Shown: positions 7,152 to 59,926, counted from the first letter of the stretch. The stretch is DNA of 64,000 nucleotides from Candidatus Komeilibacteria bacterium (GCA_018656065.1 JABHZY010000024.1:75980-139979); one strand, 5' to 3'. Notes: generated from the letters alone by a model not told the origin. Numbers and translations are program-made.

Positions 7152-8245
7152 AAAGCTTCAATCAAGTTAAGTATCTTTTCCTTAAATCTTTTTTCATCAA
7201 ATTTTTTGGCATGCTCTCTAATAATTTTAGAATCAAATTTAGCATGATCAAATCTTAATATCTTGTGAGCTAAGGATTCCCAAGTCTGTTCTTCAAAAAA
7301 CAAACCAGTCTGATTATCAATCACTGTCTCTAATGCACCGCCCTTAGCATAAGCTATTACTGGCCTACCAGAAGACATTGCTTCTAAAGCAGATATACCA
7401 AAATCTTCTAATTGCGGATAAATAAATGCCTTACAACGCGCTAAATGATAATTCCTTTCTTTATCTGATACCTCACCTAAAAATTCAATGTTGGAATGAG
7501 CCATCTTTTTTAATTTTCTAAGTTCAGAACCTCCTCCAATTATTTTAAGTGGTAATTTCAAATTATTAAAAGCCTGAATTGCCAAATCTACTTTTTTATA
7601 TGGTCTAAGACGAGAAACTATAAGATAATAATCTTCTACTTCCTCCGAGATATGAAAATCGGCTACTCGAACTGGTGGATGGATAACTACTGAATTTTTT
7701 TTATAATGTTTTTTTATTTTATTAGCTATAAAATGTGAATTAGCTATAAAATGATCTACTTCTTGAGCTTTAGAAAAATCCCAATTTTGTAATTTATTTA
7801 AAACTTTAGGTAAAAAATTCTTTAATAATTTTCCTTCTGGTAAATTACCTATATATTCTTCTTTATCATCCCACAAATATCTAGTCGGTGCATGACAATA
7901 ACAAATATGCTTATTATTATGCCCTGTTTTTACGCCTTTAACAAAAGCCGAAGATGAAGAAATAATTAAATCATAACTACTTAAATCTGTTTTCTCCCAA
8001 ACCCTAGGCATTAACACTAAAAAATATTTAAAAAGTTTATTAATACCTGGAATTTTCTGTAAATTAGAAGTGACTATATTTTTCTGATTGAGTATTTTTT
8101 TAGTTATTTTAGGATCATTTATTAAAGTAAAAATAGGCGCTTGAGGATTTAAAGTAGCTAAAGCTACTAGAACTTTTTCAGCTCCACCTATTTGAAACAA
8201 ATGATCATGAGCCAGGGCAATTTTTTTCATATTATCCTTGATCAC
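7148..8245 (-). CDS. GT4-family glycosyltransferase
   Basis: EDFGISALEAMSSGRPVIAYAKGG motif; GGSE N-terminal motif. Confidence 0.75.
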   Translation of the reverse strand: MIKDNMKKIALAHDHLFQIGGAEKVLVALATLNPQAPIFTLINDPKITKKILNQKNIVTSNLQKIPGINKLFKYFLVLMPRVWEKTDLSSYDLIISSSSAFVKGVKTGHNNKHICYCHAPTRYLWDDKEEYIGNLPEGKLLKNFLPKVLNKLQNWDFSKAQEVDHFIANSHFIANKIKKHYKKNSVVIHPPVRVADFHISEEVEDYYLIVSRLRPYKKVDLAIQAFNNLKLPLKIIGGGSELRKLKKMAHSNIEFLGEVSDKERNYHLARCKAFIYPQLEDFGISALEAMSSGRPVIAYAKGGALETVIDNQTGLFFEEQTWESLAHKILRFDHAKFDSKIIREHAKKFDEKRFKEKILNLIEAL

Positions 8246-9620
8246 CTTTAATAACTGCCATTGGAGTTTTTAATAAGATTATCAAATCAAGTAGTACAGA
8301 CCAATTTTCTATATAAAAAATATCTAACTTAGCTTCTTCACTAAAATCTAAATTAGCTCGTCCAGAAACTTGAGCCATGCCAGTAATACCTGGTTTGATA
8401 AATAATAATTTCTTATAACCTTTTTGATATTTATCAACTTCAGCTGGTTCGTGTGGTCGTGGACCCACTAAGCTCATACTAGCCCCTAAAACATTAATAA
8501 GTTGTGGTAATTCATCTAGACTGGCTCGCCTTAAAAATTTACCAACTTTTGTAACTCTGGGATCATCTTTCATTTTAAAAAGCGGACCATCAACTCTTTC
8601 GTTATATTGCATCACTTCTGATTTCATTTTATCAGCATCTTTAACCATAGAACGAAATTTATACATTTTAAAAATTTTTCCTTTATTACCGACTCTAGAC
8701 AATTTCACAAAAATTGGTCCTTGAGAATCCAATTTAATAGCTATGGCTATAATTATAAACACTGGTGATAAAATTATTAACAATAAAATAGCTACTATTA
8801 AATCAAATGTTCTTTTATAAACATGACGCCAACCATCTAGCGGCGTACCTTGAATTTCAATAACAGGTAAACCAGCTACGGAATTTATATTAAAATGTAA
8901 ACTTTGAGTTTGAAAAAGACTGGCCACATATCGAAGATTCAAATGATTCTCCTGACAATAAGTTAATAAATTAAGAGCTTCTTTTTTTTCTATACTAGAG
9001 TCTGTCTGAATCAAATTATCAATTTGTTTATTTTTTATTTGACTTACAATATCTGATGAATTTTCTAAATCCCCCAAACTATTAAACTCCGCTATAATTT
9101 TATAACCCATCTGAGGACTTTTATTATAAGTATCTACAATTGCTTGGCGACTAATATCGCTGCCTAATACTATCACTTTAGATAGCCCGTGCCCTTTTTT
9201 GAGAAAATAATTTCGAATAGCAAAAACTATTATTCTAGATATAAAAAGATAAATAATAGTAAGTCCCCAAGAAAAAATTATAATAAAACGAGAAGAAAAT
9301 AATTCCTTCTGCCAAAAAATAGCTAAAATAATTATAATGCCAACTGTAGATACTCCTGTAAAAATTTTTGGTAATTCTTTAGCCAACTTTTTATCTCGCA
9401 TAGCATAAAAACCACTCATAGCAAAAACTATAATAGACATAAAAGCCACCTTAAAAGCTAAGCTAGCAAACTCTGATAAAGGCATTTCATAAAATACTGG
9501 CCTTATCTCTTCTATTGATTCTGAAAATCTTAAAAAATAAGCCGATAAAGCAGCTAGAACTACTATTGCATAATCAATAGGCACTAAAGCAATATTTACA
9601 ATAAAATTAGCTTTTTTCAT
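8232..9620 (-). CDS. undecaprenyl-phosphate sugar phosphotransferase (WbaP/CpsE-like priming transferase)
   Basis: N-terminal TM helices plus C-terminal sugar-transferase signature DELPQLINVLGASMSLVGPRP. Confidence 0.85.
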   Translation of the reverse strand: MKKANFIVNIALVPIDYAIVVLAALSAYFLRFSESIEEIRPVFYEMPLSEFASLAFKVAFMSIIVFAMSGFYAMRDKKLAKELPKIFTGVSTVGIIIILAIFWQKELFSSRFIIIFSWGLTIIYLFISRIIVFAIRNYFLKKGHGLSKVIVLGSDISRQAIVDTYNKSPQMGYKIIAEFNSLGDLENSSDIVSQIKNKQIDNLIQTDSSIEKKEALNLLTYCQENHLNLRYVASLFQTQSLHFNINSVAGLPVIEIQGTPLDGWRHVYKRTFDLIVAILLLIILSPVFIIIAIAIKLDSQGPIFVKLSRVGNKGKIFKMYKFRSMVKDADKMKSEVMQYNERVDGPLFKMKDDPRVTKVGKFLRRASLDELPQLINVLGASMSLVGPRPHEPAEVDKYQKGYKKLLFIKPGITGMAQVSGRANLDFSEEAKLDIFYIENWSVLLDLIILLKTPMAVIKGDQG

Positions 9621-9716: not shown

Positions 9717-10060
9717 GGTTTAAATAGACCGAGATGATTGCTAATTATAGCGTAAAGCTATAATTAGAGGAAAGTCCGAACACCACAAAAAAGATAGTTG
9801 GTAACGCCAACCGTTTCTAATGCAAATTAGGGATAGGACAAGTGCAACAGAGAATATTCCTTCCTTCGGGATAAGGGTGAAAATGTCAGATAATTAGCTG
9901 ACACGTCAACATGGTGACATGTAGAAAGAGGTAAACTTCTATCCGGTGTAAGGCCAAATAGGCCCTTCGGGGCGGGTAGGCTGCTTGAGATTACAAGCAA
10001 TTGTAATCCTAGATAGATGATCATCCTAGACAGAATTCGGCTTATGAGGTCTATTTAAGC
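9717..10060 (+). ncRNA. rnpB: RNase P RNA (bacterial type)
   Basis: Conserved P4 halves GAGGAAAGUCCG and ACAGAAUUCGGCUUAU, AGGGUGAAA element, P3 hairpin (ctaattatagc/gctataattag), and a 13/14-nt P1 pairing between 9717-9730 and 10047-10060. Confidence 0.8.
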
Positions 10061-30992: not shown

Positions 30993-31376
30993 ATGAGTGA
31001 AAAAGATCTAATAAAAAAAGCTGGTTTAAAAATTACATCTGCCAATATGTCTGTTTTTAAGGCCTTAAAAAATAACCACAACCCCCTATCTGCGAAAGAA
31101 ATTTGGAATGGACTTAATAAAAAAATAAACCTTGTTTCTATATATAGAATATTAGAACGTTTTTCATTAGCTGGACTAATTAATGAAGATACTATTAATC
31201 ATGCTCGTCAAGAAAAAGTATATCACCTCTCCTCTGCTCATCATCACCATATGTTTTGTCAATCTTGTGAAAAAATATTTTGCATACCTTGTAAGTTAAA
31301 TATCGACTTACCCAAAAATTTTAAATTAATAAAACATCAAATCCAACTAACTGGATTATGTAATAAATGTAAATAA
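30993..31376 (+). CDS. zur: Fur-family metalloregulator (likely Zur)
   Basis: Winged helix (SIYRILERFSLAGLI), HHHH and CxxC...CxxC metal sites. Immediately upstream of the ZIP transporter. Confidence 0.75.
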   Translation: MSEKDLIKKAGLKITSANMSVFKALKNNHNPLSAKEIWNGLNKKINLVSIYRILERFSLAGLINEDTINHARQEKVYHLSSAHHHHMFCQSCEKIFCIPCKLNIDLPKNFKLIKHQIQLTGLCNKCK

Positions 31377-31380
31377 AAAT

Positions 31381-32271
31381 ATGTTATTAATCTACATCAT
31401 CGTGGCCACAGTAGCAGTCAGCCTATTGTCACTTATCGGCCTTAGTTTATTCTTCAAAAAAAGATACTCTCAAAAAATAATGGAAGCAACTGTATCTTTA
31501 GCTGCGGCTGTGCTATTAGGAAATGTATTTTTCCATATGTTACCTGAAATAGTAGAAGAATCTCATCATGAAAACTTTGATTTTCAATCTTTGGCTTTTT
31601 GGATGCTTGGTTCAATTGTATTTTTCTTCTTTACTGAAAAATATTTACATTGGCATAATTGTCATCATCATCAAGATCATGGCAATAATAAACACCAACA
31701 CAATGAAAAATGTACTCACCCTATGGGTATAAATATTTTAATCGGCGATGGTCTACACAATTTAATTGATGGTATGGCCATTGCAGCAGCTTTTATGCTT
31801 GATGTTCAATTGGGCGTCTTGGCAACCATTGCTATAGCTCTACACGAAATTCCTCAAGAAATTGGTGATTTTAGTTTGCTTCTATACGCAGGTTATTCTA
31901 AAACCAAGGCATTGCTATGGAATTTGATTTCTGCTCTAATGGCTGTCTTAGGAGGAATAATTACTTATTTCTTTGCCCAAAGTGGTGATACACAACTAAT
32001 ACTGACTTCTATTGCAGCTGGTAGTTTTTTATATATTGCCATGAGCGATATTATGCCCCATCTTCATAATTCAAAAAATAATCATTATAAGGTGCAGGTT
32101 TTATGGTTTGTTATAGGTTTAATATTAATATATTCTATTAATCAATTTATTAGCTTTGGACATACACACGAAGCTATTCACGAACCTAATAATCAAGCTA
32201 TTCACGAACATATCGACGATCATGAGCACGAAGAAAATCATGAAGATGAACATGATTATGACCATCAATAA
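31381..32271 (+). CDS. ZIP-family zinc transporter (ZupT-like) with His-rich loops
   Basis: 8 TM helices, HEIPQEIGDF signature, His-rich segments. Confidence 0.8.
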   Translation: MLLIYIIVATVAVSLLSLIGLSLFFKKRYSQKIMEATVSLAAAVLLGNVFFHMLPEIVEESHHENFDFQSLAFWMLGSIVFFFFTEKYLHWHNCHHHQDHGNNKHQHNEKCTHPMGINILIGDGLHNLIDGMAIAAAFMLDVQLGVLATIAIALHEIPQEIGDFSLLLYAGYSKTKALLWNLISALMAVLGGIITYFFAQSGDTQLILTSIAAGSFLYIAMSDIMPHLHNSKNNHYKVQVLWFVIGLILIYSINQFISFGHTHEAIHEPNNQAIHEHIDDHEHEENHEDEHDYDHQ

Positions 32272-32321: not shown

Positions 32322-32350
32322 TTGACAAAATAACTAAAATATGATATAAT
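32322..32350 (+). promoter_or_regulatory. consensus sigma70 promoter (TTGACA-N17-TATAAT)
   Basis: TTGACA 32322-32327, TATAAT 32345-32350; drives the first gene of the GC-rich cassette. Confidence 0.6.
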
Positions 32351-32410
32351 AATATATCTTCAATTGGAATTCGCCGATGAAGATATACCCTGTCAAATGG
32401 AGCAAACAAT

Positions 32411-32872
32411 ATGAATACGATGAAAATCGTGCTCTCCCTGATTATCATGCTGATTTTCACGGGCGTCGTCCTGGCTGATGACGAATCGCTCAGGCCCGAA
32501 CTGAACAACGCCGTCCAGCAGCTGGAAAGCAACTGGAACAGCATGACCCCCTACCAGCGTGGTGATCAAGAGCAGGAAATCGCCAGATTGGTCCTACTGC
32601 CAAAGGACTATATCGGAACCATGTTCAGGTACCACTACCTGTACACCGATACGGCCTACTTCTCCGAATGCCCCGAGGAACGGAGAGATAGGATGTGGAA
32701 CTATATCCTTGAACGGCAGAGGTGGGATACGCATGATATGCAGGTGTTGGCCAACAACTTCTACATTGAAGGCTACCACTTCGAAGCTAGGTTGTTGTTC
32801 AACCACAACCTCGATAGGCTCCAACCTATCAATCCCAACCTCGAACCCGAGGACACCTTGGAACTAGAGTAG
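32411..32872 (+). CDS. secreted protein of the GC-rich cassette, unknown function
   Basis: Signal peptide MNTMKIVLSLIIMLIFTGVVLADD. GC-rich codon usage unlike the host. Confidence 0.5.
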   Translation: MNTMKIVLSLIIMLIFTGVVLADDESLRPELNNAVQQLESNWNSMTPYQRGDQEQEIARLVLLPKDYIGTMFRYHYLYTDTAYFSECPEERRDRMWNYILERQRWDTHDMQVLANNFYIEGYHFEARLLFNHNLDRLQPINPNLEPEDTLELE

Positions 32873-32900
32873 CAGCCACCAACGCTGCTTCACCCTCTCG

Positions 32901-32930
32901 GATCCCGACCGGAAATCGGGATCTTTTATT
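32901..32930 (+). terminator. rho-independent terminator
   Basis: GATCCCGA/TCGGGATC 8-bp stem plus T-run. Confidence 0.6.
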
Positions 32931-32947
32931 TGTTCTCAGACTTACTA

Positions 32948-32976
32948 TTGACAAAAATAAATATACATGCTAGTAT
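32948..32976 (+). promoter_or_regulatory. sigma70-like promoter (TTGACA-N17-TAGTAT)
   Basis: Same architecture as the tRNA-Gln promoter at 35407. Confidence 0.5.
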
Positions 32977-33025
32977 GACTTGAAACATTAAAATTTCATT
33001 CAATGAAGCTTTGAAGAACTGTCTG

Positions 33026-33071
33026 TATTTGGACGCTTGGACAGTTTGGAGCTAGTAGCGTAACCGGCATT
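33026..33071 (+). repeat. structured leader repeat, copy 1
   Basis: Sequence tatttggacgcttggacagtttggagctagtagcgtaaccggcatt. Contains TTGGAC-gc-TTGGAC direct half-sites. Flanking aactgtc/gacagtt arms form a hairpin. Confidence 0.5.
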
Positions 33072-33195
33072 GTGTAATGAATCTCAACAAATGAGCTTGA
33101 TTTACTTAAAATGCCTGGATGGGTATTTTTTTGTATTTTAAGTTCTTTATACAACATAATAGGAAAAACATCAGTGAGGCAATGAAAAACCGCCT

Positions 33196-33285
33196 ATATT
33201 TGGACGCTTGCACCCGGTAAATTATTCTTAGGAATAAATAAACCGAGGTCAAGGGTGGTTTGGAGCTAGTAGCGTAACCGGCATT
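33196..33285 (+). repeat. structured leader repeat, copy 2 (with a 47-nt stem-loop insertion caccc...gggtg)
   Basis: Same 5' (tatttggacgcttg) and 3' (gtttggagctagtagcgtaaccggcatt) blocks as copy 1. Confidence 0.5.
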
Positions 33286-33310
33286 TAGATGCTTGTTATA
33301 TTTAGTTAAG

Positions 33311-33333
33311 ACGCCTTCTCTGAGGCGTTTTTG
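33311..33333 (+). terminator. intrinsic terminator / attenuator immediately upstream of the REC gene
   Basis: acgcct-tctctg-aggcgt hairpin plus TTTTT, 28 nt before ATG 33361. Confidence 0.55.
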
Positions 33334-33360
33334 TGTTTCCCCCAACAGGAGGTGCCTGCA

Positions 33361-33771
33361 ATGGCCCGAGTTTTCATTTTTGACAACGATCCGACCATGG
33401 CTCTGACTATGGCCTTTGGTCTGGAATCTGAAGGGCACGAAGTCCTGACCAACATCGAGACCAACGAATCTGGCGGACATCACGCTGAGCTGAACACTAC
33501 CAAGGTGATTCGCAAAATGCTCGAGTGGAAACCGGTCCCCGATGTAATTATCATCGAGTGCTTGGAAGTCGACAGCGAACGTTTCATGAGCATCCTCCAG
33601 GGTGCTGGTATGCAGCACCTGACGGTCCTAGCGATGTCACATCGCTATAAGAACAACACTCGCCTGCAACGACTGATGAGTGAGTACGGCGCCTTCTGCA
33701 TGCCGAAACCACTCAACGTCAATAATCTTGTGGAATATGTTCAGGAGCTCTCGACAAGTCCGGTTGGCTGA
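33361..33771 (+). CDS. receiver-only response regulator (CheY-like REC domain, no output domain)
   Basis: RBS GGAGG. N-terminal ARVFIFDNDP and further REC-like motifs. The track ORF 33331-33771 shares this frame. Confidence 0.65.
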   Translation: MARVFIFDNDPTMALTMAFGLESEGHEVLTNIETNESGGHHAELNTTKVIRKMLEWKPVPDVIIIECLEVDSERFMSILQGAGMQHLTVLAMSHRYKNNTRLQRLMSEYGAFCMPKPLNVNNLVEYVQELSTSPVG

Positions 33772-33836
33772 TTTAGCACAGCTTCTCTGCAAAGCTGGGG
33801 GGAATTCCCTAGACGAACGGAGAGGAGGTGATAATT

Positions 33837-33959
33837 ATGTTCAACGCTCTGACTTCGAGGATGATGAAGGGTAAGGGAGCCGTCGTGGTGTGCACGCTGT
33901 GTGTCATCGGCTTCCAGACCCTGAATCTGATTGATCTGTTCTGGTGGTTGCGCAAGTAA
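33837..33959 (+). CDS. micro-ORF A (40 aa), hydrophobic, C-terminal LIDLFWWLRK
   Basis: Strong RBS GGAGAGGAGGTG 6 nt upstream of the start. Paralog of micro-ORF B. Conserved hairpin 33984-34001 follows the stop. Confidence 0.4.
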   Translation: MFNALTSRMMKGKGAVVVCTLCVIGFQTLNLIDLFWWLRK

Positions 33960-34133
33960 CCTCTATGAAGTGTTAACCCCTGTGTCACTCTAAGGAGTGG
34001 CCAACCGGGAGCCTGTCAAAATGCTAATCCCCCCAGCGATTGGCAGGCCCCCACCCTCCTTACCTATAGATTAACTAATATAACTTCTATAGCTGGGAAC
34101 ATATATCTCAAGCTTATAAGAGGAGGTTACACC

Positions 34134-34199
34134 ATGGACTTTGTTTATATCGTAACGGGCTTGTCCCTGATCGATTTGTGGTGGTGGTTACGCAAGTAA
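34134..34199 (+). CDS. micro-ORF B (21 aa), C-terminal LIDLWWWLRK with three consecutive Trp codons
   Basis: RBS AGGAGG. Same C-terminal motif and same downstream hairpin (34223-34240) as micro-ORF A. Confidence 0.4.
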   Translation: MDFVYIVTGLSLIDLWWWLRK

Positions 34200-34299
34200 C
34201 CTAGTTGAGCACTAACTCCTGCGTCACTCTAAGGAGTGACCAACCGGGGATTTGTCGAATAGTCACGTTCCCAGTTATCGACGAATCCCCATCCCCGAC

Positions 34300-34322
34300 C
34301 TTACTCACATGGTGTGAGTAAG
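34300..34322. promoter_or_regulatory. perfect 10-bp inverted repeat (CTTACTCACA-tgg-TGTGAGTAAG), candidate operator
   Basis: Lies 28 nt upstream of the lipoprotein ATG. No T-run follows, so it is not a terminator. Confidence 0.4.
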
Positions 34323-34349
34323 TAACTCCACCTCACAGGAGGAAAAATC

Positions 34350-35057
34350 ATGAAGAAGTACGCATTTCTGACCCTGAGTATCCTGGCGCTTCTGGCCCTG
34401 GGTGCTTGCAGTGACACCGACAAGATCACCGATGTCCAATCGGACAACAACAACCAGCCGACCATTACGGCCGGCGAAATCCACACCGAGTTCCTCGAAC
34501 TGCTCTACGCCGAGAATGACTTCGCCAAGCGCGAGAAGTCAAGCCAGGTCTCGAGCGCCACTACGACGGCCAACGAGATTCTGATTCGTCACGGCCTGAA
34601 GCCGATGTCGGAAGCCGATGTCGAAACGGAACTCCAGCGGGGTCGCGAAATGGCTCAGATGGACCCTGTTCAGTTGATTGAGAGCATCTTGACTCCCGAA
34701 GAACTGATCTGGTGGGATCGTTTCTCTTGGGAAGCCAAAGTTTTCGACGCCAAGAAGGTCTACCGGCAACACTGCAACCTGTACGGTGCCCCTACCGAAG
34801 GCAGCATGCTGAGCAACCTGTTGGACATGAGCCTGTCCTCGGCCGAGTTTTGGGATGTCTACCGTGAAAAGGACATTCCGACTTACCAGAACCCCTACAT
34901 ACCGATGACCAAAAGCTGGCGCGGTGTGCTCCGTTTCGTGGTGGCCGTAGTCGTCGATGGTGGTGCAGGAGCAGCGTGTGCTGCTGGTGGCCCCATCGTA
35001 TCAGGTGTTGTTGGCGGCCTGGCTAGCGCCGGTGCTGACGGCATGATTTTCGACTAG
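34350..35057 (+). CDS. lipoprotein with Gly/Ala-rich hydrophobic C-terminal tail
   Basis: Lipobox LALGAC. C-terminal VVAVVVDGGAGAACAAGGPIVSGVVGGLASAGADG. GC-rich. Confidence 0.55.
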   Translation: MKKYAFLTLSILALLALGACSDTDKITDVQSDNNNQPTITAGEIHTEFLELLYAENDFAKREKSSQVSSATTTANEILIRHGLKPMSEADVETELQRGREMAQMDPVQLIESILTPEELIWWDRFSWEAKVFDAKKVYRQHCNLYGAPTEGSMLSNLLDMSLSSAEFWDVYREKDIPTYQNPYIPMTKSWRGVLRFVVAVVVDGGAGAACAAGGPIVSGVVGGLASAGADGMIFD

Positions 35058-35099
35058 CCACTCGCCTTCAGAGATTCTAACCTTAAACCCTTTAAGGGG

Positions 35100-35336
35100 G
35101 TGAATGCTATGCAGGATTACCTGTTAATCATTCTCTTTTGCATCATTGGTTCCGTCGTCGGTAACTTGGTGCTGAAGAATGATCGTTTTTCCCGTTTCTT
35201 AGGAATAGGCCTAGGATTGTCACCGGCATTTGCTATCATCGAGCATATGCCACTCCTCCTACTGGCCGCCCTGCTCTTCGGTCCGCTGCTTGCTTGGCGA
35301 CGACATCATGTTCGTTGTCAATCTAGCCCGACCTAG
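35100..35336 (+). CDS. small two-TM membrane protein (likely start ATG 35109)
   Basis: SD AAGGGGG 9 nt upstream of ATG 35109. Hydrophobic 70-75 aa. Confidence 0.4.
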   Translation: MNAMQDYLLIILFCIIGSVVGNLVLKNDRFSRFLGIGLGLSPAFAIIEHMPLLLLAALLFGPLLAWRRHHVRCQSSPT

Positions 35337-35355
35337 AGTAGGTCTCAAAGCCCAG

Positions 35356-35395
35356 AAGGACCCGTCACTGCATATGCACACGGGTCCTTTTCTCT
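35356..35395 (+). terminator. strong rho-independent terminator ending the GC-rich cassette
   Basis: 10-bp stem aaggacccgt/acgggtcctt plus T-run. Confidence 0.7.
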
Positions 35396-35406
35396 TATCT
35401 ATAATA

Positions 35407-35435
35407 TTGACAAATTGTCCAAAAAATAGTAGTAT
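35407..35435 (+). promoter_or_regulatory. tRNA-Gln promoter (TTGACA-N17-TAGTAT)
   Basis: TTGACA 35407-35412; -10 at 35430-35435. Lies 22 nt upstream of the tRNA. Confidence 0.5.
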
Positions 35436-35456
35436 ATTACTGCTTTTATTAAACCT

Positions 35457-35530
35457 TCGGAGATCGTCTAATGGTAGGACACCTGGTTTTGGTCCAGGCA
35501 ATCGGGGTTCGATCCCCTGTCTCCGAGCCA
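35457..35530 (+). tRNA. tRNA-Gln (anticodon UUG), CCA encoded
   Basis: Manual fold: acceptor TCGGAGA/TCTCCGA, D-arm GTCT/GGAC, anticodon stem CCTGG/CCAGG with loop TTTTGGT, T-arm CGGGG-TTCGATC-CCCTG, 3' GCCA; 74 nt. Confidence 0.75.
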
Positions 35531-40094: not shown

Positions 40095-40508
40095 TTATCC
40101 AAATTTAGGTTTATAGTTTATTGGGTCTTCAAAGTATTCTTTTATTTTAGCTATAAATTCTGACGGTATATGATTAGCTGTTACAAAATAATCAGTAACT
40201 CCTAATTCTTTACCTTTAATTATATCTTCTTCCTGTGATAGATTTGTCAGCATGAAGATTGGAATATTTTTAGTTCTCTTATCTTTCATTAATATTTTTG
40301 TAGCCTTATATCCATCCATTACTGGCATGATAATGTCCATAATTATTAAATCAGGATTAATTTCTAAAATGTATTTTACAAATTTATCAGCTTTATCTGT
40401 CTCTGGATGTTCCTTCCAAATATGTTCAAAATTATTCTGTTTAAATTTTACTTGATACATCTTACCTAAAAAAGTGTCATCATCAAATTGTAAAATTTTC
40501 TTTACCAT
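40095..40508 (-). CDS. receiver-only response regulator (REC domain)
   Basis: Acidic pocket FDDD, phospho-acceptor-like IMDIIMP, MLTN; 137 aa, no output domain. Confidence 0.65.
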   Translation of the reverse strand: MVKKILQFDDDTFLGKMYQVKFKQNNFEHIWKEHPETDKADKFVKYILEINPDLIIMDIIMPVMDGYKATKILMKDKRTKNIPIFMLTNLSQEEDIIKGKELGVTDYFVTANHIPSEFIAKIKEYFEDPINYKPKFG

Positions 40509-49421: not shown

Positions 49422-50738
49422 CTAGCTTTTAAGAGTTAATAACTTATTATTTAACATTAATCTACTTTGAAAACAACCCAGTAACTCTCTTTTTTCTAAT
49501 ATACTCCCTTCTCTTAATATATACTTTGCATAATTTCGTATATCAATATCAGCAATTACAACTCTGTCTTTTACTCCCAATAATGCTTGTTGAAATTTTT
49601 TAAACCTCTCAACCTCAATTTTAATCTTCTCTTTAATTCCAATTTCATTGATATCTATAGTTCCAATCAATTTCTCAAATTGCTTAACTAAATCTAATTC
49701 ATTTATATACCCACATTTACAAAATCTATCTCTTGTTTTTGCACAACTGTAGTAGATATAACGATGTACATTACCATTTTTCTGTTTCTTTATTTTCTGC
49801 TCAGCAGTTATACCAGAACCACATAATCCACATTTCATTAATCTAGTAAAAGCAAACTCTTTGTTATTAACCTTAACAATGTGTTTTTGCATTTGTTCTT
49901 GAGTCGCATCAAACAACTCTTTAGTGATAATAGGCTCATGTTTACCTGTATACCAATTACCACTTCTCTTCGGATACTCAAAAACACCATAATAGAAGGT
50001 ATTTTTGAAGAGTACGTAGAGATTACCTAATGTAAGATTTTTATTACCTACTGTCTTAAAATTTAAATCAAATTTTAGCCAATGGTAAACTTTACGACCA
50101 CTCCATTTTTCATAAGCAACTTTTTCAAATATCTGTTTGATAATAGGGGCGCGGTCTGGGTCAATAATAGCCTCACATTTATGATCCATATTTTTATCTT
50201 TTAAATATCCAGTTGGAGCGGGCGCAGGCCATAAACCCATCTCAACTCTTGCTTTAAGTCCCCTTCTTACATTTATACTTTTATTATCATTCTCTAACTT
50301 TGCCTGCGAACATAAAATCATTAAAAGAAATTTTTCGTTTGGCGAGTTCTTAAACTGTTGACCATAGGTACGTATCTCAATTAATAACTTCTGATCCATA
50401 AGATCTACTAAACTTCCTAGATCTCCGGCATTTCTACTTAGCCTATCTGGCGCCCAAGTTATAATCCCGTTATATCTCCCACGCCTTATATCTTCAAGTA
50501 TTTCTTTAAACACTGGACGTTGTCCAGAATCTTTAGCAGAATGAGCTTCTCTACGTATATCTATAATCTCAAGCTCATCACGCTCTGCGATTGCAAGCAT
50601 TTCTTTAACTTGTGAATCAATAGAAAGAGCCTGTTTCTCGTCTGATTCAGTTGATTTACGAGCATATAAACAATACTTAATTTTAACGTCTGTGACTTGT
50701 TTTTCCTTACCAATTAAGGATGTTTTATTGTTTTCCAT
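49422..50738 (-). CDS. large serine recombinase (resolvase/integrase)
   Basis: Catalytic N-domain YARKSTESDEKQ...RLSRN, recombinase domain, Zn ribbon CGLCGSG...YYSCAK. Confidence 0.8.
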   Translation of the reverse strand: MENNKTSLIGKEKQVTDVKIKYCLYARKSTESDEKQALSIDSQVKEMLAIAERDELEIIDIRREAHSAKDSGQRPVFKEILEDIRRGRYNGIITWAPDRLSRNAGDLGSLVDLMDQKLLIEIRTYGQQFKNSPNEKFLLMILCSQAKLENDNKSINVRRGLKARVEMGLWPAPAPTGYLKDKNMDHKCEAIIDPDRAPIIKQIFEKVAYEKWSGRKVYHWLKFDLNFKTVGNKNLTLGNLYVLFKNTFYYGVFEYPKRSGNWYTGKHEPIITKELFDATQEQMQKHIVKVNNKEFAFTRLMKCGLCGSGITAEQKIKKQKNGNVHRYIYYSCAKTRDRFCKCGYINELDLVKQFEKLIGTIDINEIGIKEKIKIEVERFKKFQQALLGVKDRVVIADIDIRNYAKYILREGSILEKRELLGCFQSRLMLNNKLLTLKS

Positions 50739-53133: not shown

Positions 53134-53527
53134 ATTCTTTATTGTTATCTGATAAAATATCCGCCAATTGCAGAGCTTTGTGAACTACTGCAGTTTGTGA
53201 CGGAGTAAGTTCTCCTGAATCTTCAAATTTAGAAGTAACTTCTACTTTGTCTCTAAAACGTGGATTTCGATGATTAAGCCAAAACCTTATAGCAGAAAAA
53301 TTTTTTTCTTTTATAAGAGTCAATAATTGGCTTTCAGACATATCATTAACCAAGTCTTCACCTTCGACTAATGCCTCATCCATAGCTTTAGAGAATTTTT
53401 TATCGTCTCGCTTCCAACGATAGATACTATTTCTTGATATGCCAGTTTTCTCGCAAGCTACTTGCACTATTGGAACTTTTTTTAGCTCCGCAAGAAAGCT
53501 GTCTCTAATTCTATTTTTCTTAGACAT
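53078..53527 (-). CDS. HTH protein, terminase small subunit-like
   Basis: N-terminal helix-turn-helix (CEKTGISRNSIYRWK). Position is immediately upstream of TerL and overlaps it by 56 nt. Confidence 0.4.
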   Translation of the reverse strand: MSKKNRIRDSFLAELKKVPIVQVACEKTGISRNSIYRWKRDDKKFSKAMDEALVEGEDLVNDMSESQLLTLIKEKNFSAIRFWLNHRNPRFRDKVEVTSKFEDSGELTPSQTAVVHKALQLADILSDNNKEYVKEKNDTTRASRSNDKG

Positions 53528-54794
53528 GATCCACCTTTGCCTTTCTACCGGTTAACTTCTCATATCTTCTGATAGTCAAATCACAAAATATAGGTTCTAG
53601 CTCAATTGCATAAACTTTTCGCTTTAGTTGTTCACTAGCAATAATAGTACTACCTGAACCAGAGAATGAATCTAGAATGATATCTCCTGGCCTACTACAA
53701 CGCCTTATAGCCTTCTCATGAAGCTTTGGTGGCTTACTAGTCGCATGTTCATATTTTTGACCAGATAAACGCTTTACAAGCCATATATCAAGCTCGTCAG
53801 AAGCTTCGGCAAATAGGTTGTTACCTGTAGTCATCTCTTTATTCAATACTTCGTTGAGATTGTTAATATTAGGTGTAATATATGGTTTACCCAGCACTCC
53901 ATATACCACAGGCTCATAACATTTATTGAAGGCGACCTTTGGCGTGGGATTCTGTGAATTTTTTAACCACAAACACACTCGCTTATTCACAATACCGAGT
54001 TCTCTGTATAATTCTTGTATCAAACCAATATAAGTTTGATCACACCAATAGAAGATGTGACTATTGGCAGCTGTAACCGATAAAGCAGTAACTAAAGTTT
54101 CTTTTATAAAGTTTTTATACTCTTCATAAGTGCGTTTATCATTTACATTACCACCATAATCTTTCTTACCTCCAATTCCCTTAGAATAATCTAGATTTAT
54201 ATTGTAAGGTGGATCACTATATATCATTGAAGCTTTTTCATCTCCAAACAATCGTTTGAGATTTTTTGGATCAGTAGAACTACCACATAACAACTTATGT
54301 GGTCCTAAATAAATTAAGTCACCCAGCTTTGTTTTTGGTGTCTTAATTTTCTTAAGTTCTTCTTCGACATCAAAATTCTCATCTTTGACTTCTAGCTCCT
54401 CGTCCCATAAATGAGCCAGGTCTATTTGATCAAAACCTATATCAACTAACAGATCGAGATCAAAAGACTTTAATTTTTCAAAATCCCAAGAGCCACCTAA
54501 GGTGTTGCTAGCTATAAGGTAACGCTCGGATTCTTCTTTGGTTAGTTGTCTGTTAGGAATACGAACATCAATAAGCTCTTCGCCTCGACCTAATAGCTGT
54601 AGAGCCTTGATTCTCTGATGGCCAGCTAATATTTTGCCATTTAGATCAATAGCTGGTATTTCCACTAAATTGAACTTTTTCAAATTCTTTTGTAAATCTG
54701 ACATTTGCTTATCAGAAATAGTACGAGGATTAACGTCTTGTGGAATAAGATCATTTACTCGTTTTGACACTGTGTGCCATTTCAATTTTTCCAT
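53520..54794 (-). CDS. ParB-like nuclease domain fused to beta-class DNA N6A/N4C methyltransferase
   Basis: ParB N-domain (EIPAIDLNGKILAGHQRIKA). DPPY motif (IYSDPPYN) precedes the FxGxG motif (ILDSFSGSGST). Confidence 0.8.
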   Translation of the reverse strand: MEKLKWHTVSKRVNDLIPQDVNPRTISDKQMSDLQKNLKKFNLVEIPAIDLNGKILAGHQRIKALQLLGRGEELIDVRIPNRQLTKEESERYLIASNTLGGSWDFEKLKSFDLDLLVDIGFDQIDLAHLWDEELEVKDENFDVEEELKKIKTPKTKLGDLIYLGPHKLLCGSSTDPKNLKRLFGDEKASMIYSDPPYNINLDYSKGIGGKKDYGGNVNDKRTYEEYKNFIKETLVTALSVTAANSHIFYWCDQTYIGLIQELYRELGIVNKRVCLWLKNSQNPTPKVAFNKCYEPVVYGVLGKPYITPNINNLNEVLNKEMTTGNNLFAEASDELDIWLVKRLSGQKYEHATSKPPKLHEKAIRRCSRPGDIILDSFSGSGSTIIASEQLKRKVYAIELEPIFCDLTIRRYEKLTGRKAKVDHV

Positions 54795-58321: not shown

Positions 58322-59926
58322 CTATTTCACGGCTACTTTGATAAAATCTCGAAATAATGGGTGTGGTCTTAATGGACGAGATTTAAATTCTGGATGAAAT
58401 TGGCTAGCTACAAAATATGGATGATCTTTAAGCTCTATAATTTCTACTAACTTTTTATCTGGTGATAAACCAGCAAATCTCATGCCCGCCTGTTCAAGCT
58501 GTTCTTTATAAGCCATATTAAACTCATACCTATGTCTGTGACGCTCGGAAATCTTTGGTATGCCATAAGCTTTATAAGATAATGATTTCTTATCTAACAC
58601 ACAAGGATAAGCTCCTAAACGAAGCGTGCCTCCTTTATCTTCATCTTTGTGATGACCTGGTAAAATATGAATTACTGGATTTGGAGTTTTAGCATTAAAC
58701 TCAGTAGAATCTACCTCTTCAGTACCTAAAACATGTCTAGCAAATTCAATAGTAGCCACTTGCATACCTAGACAAAGACCTAAATATGGTTTTTTATGCT
58801 CTCTGGCATATTTAGCAGCCATTATTTTACCTTCAACTCCTCTAGCTCCAAAACCACCTGGTACCACTATACCAGCTGCTTTTTTTAATTTAGCTAATTC
58901 TTTTTTATCTTTTTTCTCTAATTTACCAGCATTAATCCAAAGTAAATCCAGTTTAGCATTATTATGATAACAAGCTGATTTCAAAGATTCTACCACAGAA
59001 ATATAAGCATCAATATTTTCATTATACTTACCTACTAGAGCAATAGATAATTTCTTTCTAGTCTTCTTAATCTTAGAAACTAAAGCTTTCCATTCACTTA
59101 AATCTGGTTTTTTCTTAGGTAATTTTAATTTTTCAAAAATAATTTCTGAAATATTAGCTTTTTCAAAAAGAATTGGTACTTCATAAATAGTCTTAACAGT
59201 CAAAGCTGGAATCACAGCTCTAGGATCTACATCAGCAAACATAGCAATCTTTTTTAACTCATCTTTACCCACTTTAAGATCAGACCTAGTCAAAATTATA
59301 TCTGGCTGAATACCACGACGATGTAATTCTCTTACTGACATCTGTGTTGGCTTTGTTTTAAGCTCCCTAGAAGCTATTAGATAAGGTAATAAAGTTAAAT
59401 GTACAAACATTACATTCTCATCTCCCATTTCATTATGAAACTGACGCAGAGCTTCTAAAAATGGTTCACCTTCAATATCGCCAACCGTACCTCCAATTTC
59501 CACTAATAAAAAATCGGCCTTTGATTCTTTAGCTGCATTACGAAGATAATCTTTTATTTCATTAGTAATATGAGGCACAATTTGAATAGTCTTACCTAAA
59601 TATGCACCAGCCCGCTCTCCTTTAAGCACTGTTTCATATACTCTGCCAGTAGTTAGGTTTGATAACTTGGATAAACTAGTATCAATAAATCTCTCATAAT
59701 GTCCTAAATCAAGATCAGTTTCACTACCATCGTCAGTTACAAACACTTCACCATGTTGATAAGGACTCATTGTACCAGGATCTATATTTAAATATGGATC
59801 TAACTTGCTAGTATAAACAGAATAACCGGCTGATTTGAGTATTGCTCCGATAGATGCAGAGGCGATTCCTTTGCCTAATCCCGAACATACTCCGCCGGTT
59901 ATAAAGATGTATTTAGTCTTAACCAT
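58322..59926 (-). CDS. pyrG: CTP synthase
   Basis: N-terminal KYIFITGGVCSGLGKG; glutamine amidotransferase domain with GLCLGMQ. Confidence 0.9.
   Translation of the reverse strand: MVKTKYIFITGGVCSGLGKGIASASIGAILKSAGYSVYTSKLDPYLNIDPGTMSPYQHGEVFVTDDGSETDLDLGHYERFIDTSLSKLSNLTTGRVYETVLKGERAGAYLGKTIQIVPHITNEIKDYLRNAAKESKADFLLVEIGGTVGDIEGEPFLEALRQFHNEMGDENVMFVHLTLLPYLIASRELKTKPTQMSVRELHRRGIQPDIILTRSDLKVGKDELKKIAMFADVDPRAVIPALTVKTIYEVPILFEKANISEIIFEKLKLPKKKPDLSEWKALVSKIKKTRKKLSIALVGKYNENIDAYISVVESLKSACYHNNAKLDLLWINAGKLEKKDKKELAKLKKAAGIVVPGGFGARGVEGKIMAAKYAREHKKPYLGLCLGMQVATIEFARHVLGTEEVDSTEFNAKTPNPVIHILPGHHKDEDKGGTLRLGAYPCVLDKKSLSYKAYGIPKISERHRHRYEFNMAYKEQLEQAGMRFAGLSPDKKLVEIIELKDHPYFVASQFHPEFKSRPLRPHPLFRDFIKVAVK

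Follow-up and report, generated by a model that had tools for sequence, protein, structure and literature searches.

Doublets and triplets of class II riboswitches for cyclic dimeric GMP (c-di-GMP), in which two or three complete RF01786 aptamers stand one after another and every aptamer has an expression platform of its own, are known mostly from positions ahead of a surface-anchor gene in Paraclostridium (PMC9481103). A comparable arrangement of class I aptamers, the triple-tandem Bc3-5, precedes a collagen adhesion gene in Bacillus thuringiensis (PMC4759541). Here we describe a tandem pair of class II units in a 64,000-nucleotide (nt) stretch from Candidatus Komeilibacteria bacterium (GCA_018656065.1, JABHZY010000024.1:75980-139979; hereafter, the window), a member of the Candidate Phyla Radiation (CPR, or Patescibacteria), where the pair heads an operon within a GC-rich block that extends from ~32390 to ~35400 (coordinates are positions in the window, on the plus strand unless said otherwise; labels of the form L0xx denote related loci or contigs). 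As in Paraclostridium, the units lie upstream of genes for cell-surface proteins and a steeper response to c-di-GMP is to be expected, whereas the CPR host, the predicted OFF polarity, the set of uncharacterized receiver, micro-protein and lipoprotein genes and the variation of the cargo among close relatives set the locus apart. With Bc3-5 it has in common the complete switches in tandem, the surface or adhesion gene and the control by termination, the differences being that Bc3-5 consists of class I rather than class II aptamers, belongs to another phylum and governs one stable cargo gene.

The probable explanation of this locus, in our assessment, is that the block comprises two layers of foreign DNA lodged in a conserved slot of variable content, which is framed by the ZIP transporter gene and the riboswitch promoter on the left and by tRNA-Gln on the right. 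The GC content of the block is 0.48-0.59, compared to 0.27-0.32 outside, with the right-hand drop at ~35370-35400, and no other GC-rich island of this kind is found in the 64 kb. In 3-kb windows, the block (32390-35400) reaches a GC content of 0.498 against 0.307 ± 0.022 for the host (maximum 0.351; z = 8.6), and its tetranucleotide distance to the host mean stands out as well (z = 12.9), the signature being most like that of genomes with ~50-54% GC. The G+C fraction at third codon positions (GC3) is 0.53-0.78 in the six open reading frames (ORFs) of the block and 0.194 ± 0.036 (maximum 0.316) in 49 host ORFs; the first and second codon positions (GC1 and GC2) are likewise displaced from the host. 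The AT-rich dip inside the block, at 32950-33250, corresponds to the promoter and the riboswitch leader. A reading of the block as one large non-coding RNA was rejected in view of the length of the ORFs, the presence of signal peptides, the GC3 signal and the conservation of the protein families.

These measurements bear out much of the first-pass annotation of this DNA, which had proposed abrupt shifts in composition at ~32390 and ~35400, an accompanying change in codon usage, and terminators within the cassette (10 terminator-like sites, compared to 3.0 ± 1.7 expected). The ORFs that it listed all exist, namely those for a secreted protein, a receiver-only protein, two Trp-rich micro-proteins, a lipoprotein and a small membrane protein, although the main regulatory feature, the tandem c-di-GMP-II riboswitches, was overlooked. 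Promoter-like sites lie at 32322, 32948 and 35407, the last belonging to the tRNA and not to the cassette, and the number of TTGACA-N17-TATAAT-like sites as a class does not exceed chance (13, compared to 9.1 ± 3.2 expected). What had been taken for one single cassette consists of at least two nested units, the gene here denoted gene A and the riboswitch operon.

The gene order Fur-ZIP-cassette-tRNA-NERD recurs in at least 10 independent assemblies (ENA, JGI, NCBI, Logan), as established by locating the exact lipoprotein, ZIP and gene A proteins on contigs and comparing the neighbors on both sides. The assemblies with the block include ENA ERZ4200974 (with a 448-kb contig), ERZ27237574, ERZ27237584 and ERZ23491424, JGI 3300072015, NCBI GCA_018651305.1 and several Logan runs; among the contigs that contain both junctions are those of 448, 291 and 178 kb. 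According to NCBI, the source is the metagenome-assembled genome of a Candidatus Komeilibacteria bacterium. In this CPR chromosome, the block is real DNA of foreign composition.

Examination of the related loci indicates that the frame is conserved and the content is not. Two long contigs, L029 (860 kb) and L030 (306 kb), share with the window the SpoU gene, a gene for a 535-amino acid (aa) protein, ZIP and tRNA-Gln, with Fur also present in L030; their flanks are 83-89% identical to those of the window at the aa level, and a more distant synteny (70-78%) is seen in L024. In all three, the position equivalent to that in the window is occupied by c-di-GMP-II aptamers together with a receiver gene, followed by other small lipoprotein or secreted-protein genes as cargo; the cargoes of L029 and L030 are 27-44% identical, and that of L024 represents a third type. 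On the right side, the similarity among relatives is limited to the tRNA promoter and the tRNA. The receiver genes of L029 and L030 are 65-72% identical to that of the window, with GC3 of 0.35 in L029, 0.63 in the window and 0.77 in L030, compared to ~0.2 in the flanks. Because synonymous sites should have equilibrated at the observed divergence of the flanks, we infer that the content of the slot was replaced recurrently by recombination, as opposed to a single ancient insertion.

One contig, L013, is 100% identical to the window type up to position 2381 and 100% identical to the L029 type from position 2299 on, and the 83 nt common to both parts (2299-2381) are exactly aptamer 1 (window 32995-33078), which is identical in the two lineages. 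The junction may stem from a true crossover inside the aptamer or from a join made in assembly at low coverage; no second contig with this junction was found among 10 of the 24 gene A contigs. In L031 (1-4376, ~50% GC), two receiver-headed modules stand in tandem, the first of the window type (receiver, micro-ORF, hairpins, lipoprotein, membrane protein) and the second of the L024 type (34-35% identity; receiver, 318-aa protein, 196-aa lipoprotein), which makes this genome a candidate reservoir of modules. In three CPR lineages, the riboswitch-lipoprotein module adjoins ZIP genes, in two cases along with Fur (window 30993-32271; L017 8381-8752 and 10973-11737; L037 2222-2971); this neighborhood could be a conserved piece of ancestral synteny or could reflect a functional tie with metal homeostasis.

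Gene A (32411..32872; GC3 0.73), which encodes a 153-aa orphan protein with a signal peptide, would constitute the first layer. It has a promoter-like site of its own (32322..32350; a 12/12 match to TTGACA-N17-TATAAT with an extended -10 TG) and, according to the terminator scan, its own intrinsic terminator (32900..32934). A search for homologs among 5.8 billion proteins recovered its own cluster alone. Gene A is missing from L029 and L030, in which a single promoter links ZIP to aptamer 1, whereas the window contains two copies of this promoter with gene A between them. Given the single promoter in the relatives and the duplicated one around gene A, this gene appears to be a separate insertion that lies in the promoter region upstream of the riboswitches.

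The second layer would be the operon that starts from the promoter-like site at 32948..32976 (TTGACA-N17-TAGTAT, 10/12 match). With 74.3 bits against a gathering score of 53.5 (E = 5.5e-16), aptamer 1 (32995..33078) matches RF01786; after it comes a terminator hairpin with a U7 tract (33107..33132), which has in its 5' arm, AAAUGCCUGG, the complement of CCGGCAUU in the aptamer. Aptamer 2 (33166..33291; 49.7 bits, E = 5e-9) deviates by 44 nt inserted into the loop, a variant also kept in L029 and L013; its terminator (33308..33335) was identified by the terminator scan and folding. Each aptamer is followed, 20-50 nt downstream, by a hairpin and a run of 5-7 U, the expression platform. In 12 units from six genomes, the 5' arm of the terminator pairs with the aptamer, either with CCGGCAUU (3') or with UGAGRCG (5'), before the 3' arm is made, and in all 12 the 3' arm imitates the aptamer segment that is paired by the 5' arm. 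Unconstrained minimum free energy folding of aptamer and platform yielded no clear polarity; folding of each unit truncated at the terminator loop (transcript-length analysis) did yield one. Because the anti-terminator uses up aptamer nucleotides, the units are predicted to be OFF switches in which c-di-GMP promotes termination. Transcription would have to traverse both complete units in series: the unliganded RNA would form the anti-terminator and permit read-through, whereas binding of c-di-GMP would free the terminator in each unit, and the tandem arrangement would sharpen the response. In L029 (5523-5606) and L013 (3158-3241), a third c-di-GMP-II aptamer follows the receiver gene, such that the cargo is gated apart from the receiver. 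Motif searches for GGDEF, HD-GYP and PilZ in the window and the flanking loci yielded false positives alone (acetate kinase and the Macro domain). Diguanylate cyclases have been reported from CPR metagenome-assembled genomes (MAGs) (PMC9938205); a literature search found no work linking c-di-GMP riboswitches with CPR.

The transcript that escapes termination would first give a stand-alone 136-aa protein (33361..33771) with the fold of a response regulator receiver. The AlphaFold2 model of this protein (predicted local distance difference test score 90.4) is a (beta/alpha)5 structure, and nearly all of the top 50 matches in a Foldseek comparison with PDB are receiver domains, including RR468, PhoP and VicR (best E = 8e-7, template modeling (TM) score 0.75/0.82), which confirms the fold assigned in the first-pass annotation. 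Like the single-domain response regulators of the CheY and RR468 type, it has an Asp after beta1, a Ser/Thr after beta4 and a Lys-Pro after beta5, with Asp8 and Lys116-Pro117 retained in the alignment. It differs from them in having Glu (Glu66) for Asp at the phospho-acceptor position and in the lack of a nearby cognate kinase; no Pfam family was matched at E ≤0.1 and hence no PF00072, which the canonical receiver encoded elsewhere in the window (40095-40508) does match. The family is tiny, with 12 relatives among 1.84 billion representatives; the acceptor position is occupied by Glu in most of these and by Asp in P0019, P0020, P0022 and P0023.

Next in the operon come two hydrophobic, Trp-rich micro-proteins, those of micro-ORF 1 (33837..33959; 40 aa, ending in ...LNLIDLFWWLRK) and micro-ORF 2 (34134..34199; 21 aa, MDFVYIVTGLSLIDLWWWLRK), both with a strong Shine-Dalgarno (SD) sequence, AGGAGGT, and with WW or WWW located 3-4 codons ahead of the stop. 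The five available copies (two in the window and one each in L031, L030 and L024) end in (M)GLALIDLFWWLRK and all have the AGGAGGT; in the last ten codons (LIDLFWWLRK), nearly all changes are synonymous, for example, CGC/CGT/AGG or TTG/TTA/CTG/CTC. On the strength of the SD sequence in five copies and these near-exclusively synonymous changes, the micro-ORFs can be considered translated.

Each micro-ORF is followed by a copy of a two-hairpin leader element, the first at 33972..34058 (87 nt, 102.4 bits with the covariance model) and the second at 34211..34296 (94.5 bits). A hand-made alignment of four sequences of this element shows 97% pairing with 7 compensated pairs; in the model-fitted alignment, 98% of the cells pair, compared to 34-47% in slid controls, with compensatory changes in 15 of the 20 pairs. 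The covariance model built from four copies recovered the non-seed copies of L024 (45 bits) and L030 (31 bits), and the element has no match in Rfam. In L030 and L024, hairpin 2 is followed by a U-tract and a new promoter, and the element would serve as a terminator; in the window, as in L031 and L014, the U-tract is absent, and transcription would run on into the genes for the lipoprotein and the small membrane protein. Downstream of copy 2, a third hairpin can be read in the sequence, CTTACTCACA-TGG-TGTGAGTAAG, followed by CCTCACAGGAGG (34300..34322), an anti-SD/SD arrangement ahead of the lipoprotein start; L031 and L014 have a hairpin of a different sequence in this place. The segment GCTGGGGGG (33794..33802) matches, without any mismatch, the reverse complement of CCCCCCAGC, which is located in the hairpin 2 loop (34030-34038), so that a long-range pairing CUGGGGGG/CCCCCCAG bracketing micro-ORF 1 is possible to judge from the sequence; the same complement is present, unchanged, in L031 and L030.

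A short, well-translated ORF with tandem Trp codons by the stop, followed directly by conserved hairpins ahead of the regulated genes, is reminiscent of leader-peptide systems such as trpL attenuation, TnaC, SecM and MifM, and the U-tract terminator in L030 and L024 as well as the hydrophobic N-terminal part of micro-ORF 1, which is a feature of MifM, add to the likeness. Unlike in these systems, to which there is no sequence similarity, the whole peptide is conserved, not the Trp codons alone; in contrast to trpL-type attenuation, no competing anti-terminator pairing was established, and the hairpins in the window lack a U-tract. Just as well, the 21-aa product may function as a membrane protein.

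The last two genes of the operon encode a 235-aa lipoprotein (34350..35057) and a 75-aa small membrane protein (35109..35336), and the right edge of the block is formed by a terminator read in the sequence as AAGGACCCGT ... ACGGGTCCTT + TTCTCTT (35346..35386). The signal peptide of the lipoprotein, MKKYAFLTLSILALLALGAC, ends in the lipobox LGAC, and the alignment of the family shows hardly any variation at Cys20. The structural model is all-alpha, with a Gly/Ala-rich hydrophobic helical hairpin at the C-terminus, and has no significant match in PDB (Foldseek, best E = 0.47). The family, which comprises 14 clusters in a single-sequence search and 31 clusters in a profile search, is uncharacterized, with no Pfam domain in any of its clusters, and comparison of all six cassette products with Pfam, NCBIfam and PADLOC produced nothing meaningful. 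The likely output of the operon is c-di-GMP-dependent remodeling of the cell envelope or surface.

An alternative function, suggested in part by the first-pass annotation, which noted a loose resemblance of the last two genes to a secreted peptide with its immunity protein, is that the lipoprotein is a pore-forming or bacteriocin-like toxin, the membrane protein confers immunity and the rest of the operon regulates release. The two genes are indeed strictly adjacent at all checked loci (the window, L014, L017, L018, L023, L031 and L040), which is an unspecific trait, and the lipoprotein is modeled as an amphipathic helical bundle with a hydrophobic hairpin in a locus that is hypervariable and horizontally exchanged. 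In one strain (ENA ERZ4200981; L011 ~7553-7560, window 34467-34598; 5.2x coverage), a 124-nt deletion between ACGGCC repeats shifts the frame of the lipoprotein gene; such inactivation fits a toxin, and some strains may be able to do without the gene or be in the course of losing it. We nevertheless consider the toxin hypothesis unlikely: no bacteriocin, toxin, immunity or defense family is matched, colicin A and Bcl-2-type bundles surface only at E = 3-5 with TM scores below 0.2, no gene for export or processing is present, and the lipobox implies membrane anchoring rather than release.

The distribution of the lipoprotein family bears on the origin of the block. The family is split between low-GC, CPR-like genomes, where it is associated with the riboswitch, and genomes of mid to high GC, where it is not. 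At all low-GC loci that encode the lipoprotein or the receiver, c-di-GMP-II aptamers lie directly upstream (L017, L022, L024, L026, L029, L030 and L037). Where the lipoprotein gene itself could be compared, there are two aptamers in the window (host GC 31%, lipoprotein GC3 0.70), L017 (35%, 0.50), L022 (~35%, 0.80) and L037 (26%, 0.20), and one in L026 (28%, 0.19). No aptamers were detected at L014 (62%, 0.76), L018 (59%, 0.70), L023 (66%), L039 (54%, 0.60) and L040 (54%, 0.58); in three of these five genomes, regulators of the σ54/HTH_8 type are encoded near the lipoprotein pair, and SurA, MacB or TonB-type genes also occur in the neighborhood. The closest relative of the window lipoprotein is found in L014, a 62% GC MAG labeled Fibrobacteraceae (72% aa identity, 75% nt identity over 1002 nt), and the membrane protein is 79% identical to the L014 copy; the other CPR copies of the lipoprotein are merely ~50% identical. 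Thus, the higher-GC foreign origin that had been proposed at the outset is supported for this pair, the nearest relatives of which come from genomes with 54-62% GC, but no donor was identified for gene A or the receiver gene. Scans of viral contigs with the lipoprotein and receiver profiles detected no relatives, and thus no evidence of carriage by phages.

Taken further, these comparisons suggest a scenario that we put forward tentatively, as something that may well prove incorrect: in Komeilibacteria-like CPR, the aptamers and tRNA-Gln could be the homology anchors of a swappable slot through which sets of envelope genes are exchanged by recombination, some of them captured from unrelated diderms of mid to high GC (possibly hosts or neighbors), such that incoming surface genes would come at once under c-di-GMP control, and the receiver would join with the WW micro-protein and with the two-hairpin element in a second, hitherto undescribed regulatory layer for all cargo. 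CPR bacteria are ultrasmall, mostly uncultured episymbionts, and little is known of how they regulate their surface and their contact with hosts. The ingredients of the locus are of known kinds, riboswitch-controlled surface genes and a horizontally exchanged islet; here, c-di-GMP riboswitches appear to be in use across several CPR lineages, over hypervariable lipoproteins and small membrane proteins that are in part shared across phyla. The locus thereby offers a testable entry point to c-di-GMP signaling in CPR and a case in which the regulation of transferred genes was rewired, with a riboswitch in place of a σ54/HTH_8-type context. Three uncharacterized conserved elements come with it, namely a family of Glu-type stand-alone receivers, a WW micro-protein of 21 aa and a two-hairpin RNA that covaries and is unmatched in Rfam. 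The use of riboswitches to control genes in Patescibacteria has been suggested (PMC11665869), and native CPR riboswitches would help in the making of such tools.

Several observations weigh against the reading of the block as two layers of foreign DNA with an OFF-switched operon. With respect to origin, the complete module also occurs in AT-rich form in the CPR genomes L026 and L037 (GC3 0.19-0.20), so that CPR may have possessed the lipoprotein family for a long time, and its transfer between CPR and high-GC bacteria may have gone in either direction; all relatives of the receiver that have a name come from CPR, and gene A has no donor among the 5.8 billion proteins searched. The occurrence of ZIP/Fur near the module in the window, L017 and L037 is a hint that the module has long been resident or is functionally linked to these genes, and not that it was inserted at random several times, and L013 is one contig with 2.75x coverage that might have been joined in assembly through the identical 83-mer. 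With respect to regulation, the score of aptamer 2 is slightly under the Rfam gathering score, the sole basis for the OFF polarity is thermodynamic folding, the characterized c-di-GMP-II switches of Clostridioides difficile are ON switches, and no diguanylate cyclase or phosphodiesterase is encoded within the 64-kb window.

An alternative history is that the block was never acquired and is an old resident operon, its GC content kept high by selection for RNA structure or for slow translation at rare codons. The riboswitch-receiver frame that is syntenic in four related genomes, the association with riboswitches at all low-GC loci, the ZIP/Fur neighborhood in three lineages and the share of structured RNA in the block are compatible with such a history. 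Elevated GC3 in six different ORFs together with the shifts in GC1 and GC2 is, however, beyond the reach of RNA structure, and the homologous modules of L026 and L037 work at GC3 of 0.19-0.20. The receiver GC3 varies from 0.35 to 0.77 among relatives with flanks that are 83-89% identical, and the window lipoprotein is nearer to the copy from a 62% GC genome than to any other CPR copy. Residence without acquisition therefore appears very unlikely, and a foreign block in a variable slot remains the explanation that we favor.

Deviant accessory genes beside a tRNA, with content that varies among relatives, are also the hallmark of tRNA-adjacent genomic islands, and the first-pass annotation had placed the cassette at a tRNA integration hotspot. 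The host promoter and tRNA-Gln(UUG) (35407..35530; 10/12 promoter match) belong to the conserved right-hand frame of the slot and are not foreign DNA. On the 3' side of this tRNA, the distance to pyrG (58322-59926) is ~22.7 kb in the window, compared to ~0.5 kb in L029. The AT-rich interval from 35531 to ~58300 encodes a large serine recombinase (49422-50738), an N6/N4 DNA methylase (53520-54794), NERD, DUF6804, Macro and DUF3800 proteins, an S49 peptidase, the canonical receiver mentioned above, an AAA ATPase and an 833-aa HSP70-like protein, and probably consists of one or more integrated mobile elements, although a simple exact-match search found no attachment site (att) repeat. Because this recombinase island is present there and absent in L029, the 3' side of tRNA-Gln is a genuine hotspot of integration. 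In L030, a 531-aa ORF right after tRNA-Gln (7192-8787, minus strand) has an N-terminal sequence like that of large serine recombinases, and in L029 (~8500-8560), pieces resembling the 5' half of tRNA-Gln (TTCGGAGAT... and CGTCTAATGGTAGAACA) lie just upstream of the intact tRNA gene and may be the scar of an earlier recombination at the tRNA.

These features, along with the deviant composition and codon usage of the cassette and its position next to the tRNA, could be taken to indicate that the cassette itself is a classical island aimed at tRNA-Gln by an integrase. Such an origin has little probability. The cassette lies 5' of the tRNA, with its left border in the promoter/riboswitch region; none of its six products matches a recombinase (Pfam, NCBIfam), and a search for att-like repeats around it returned only AT-rich chance matches, that is, no flanking direct repeats. 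Furthermore, the left part, consisting of riboswitch and receiver, is common to relatives with other cargo, and gene A is outside the riboswitch-tRNA interval. The island of the classical type is a separate one, on the 3' side.

Finally, the concern that an AT-rich contig received a GC-rich fragment from a different organism, as a chimera or contaminant, can be practically dismissed despite the abruptness of the composition steps and the existence of short contigs with little beyond the cassette (L008), because both junctions recur in independently assembled contigs from several projects and assemblers, and because the promoters within the block are AT-rich and host-style and the relatives show the identical frame.

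Elsewhere in the window, an RNase P RNA of bacterial class A lies at 9722-10060 on the plus strand (215.8 bits).

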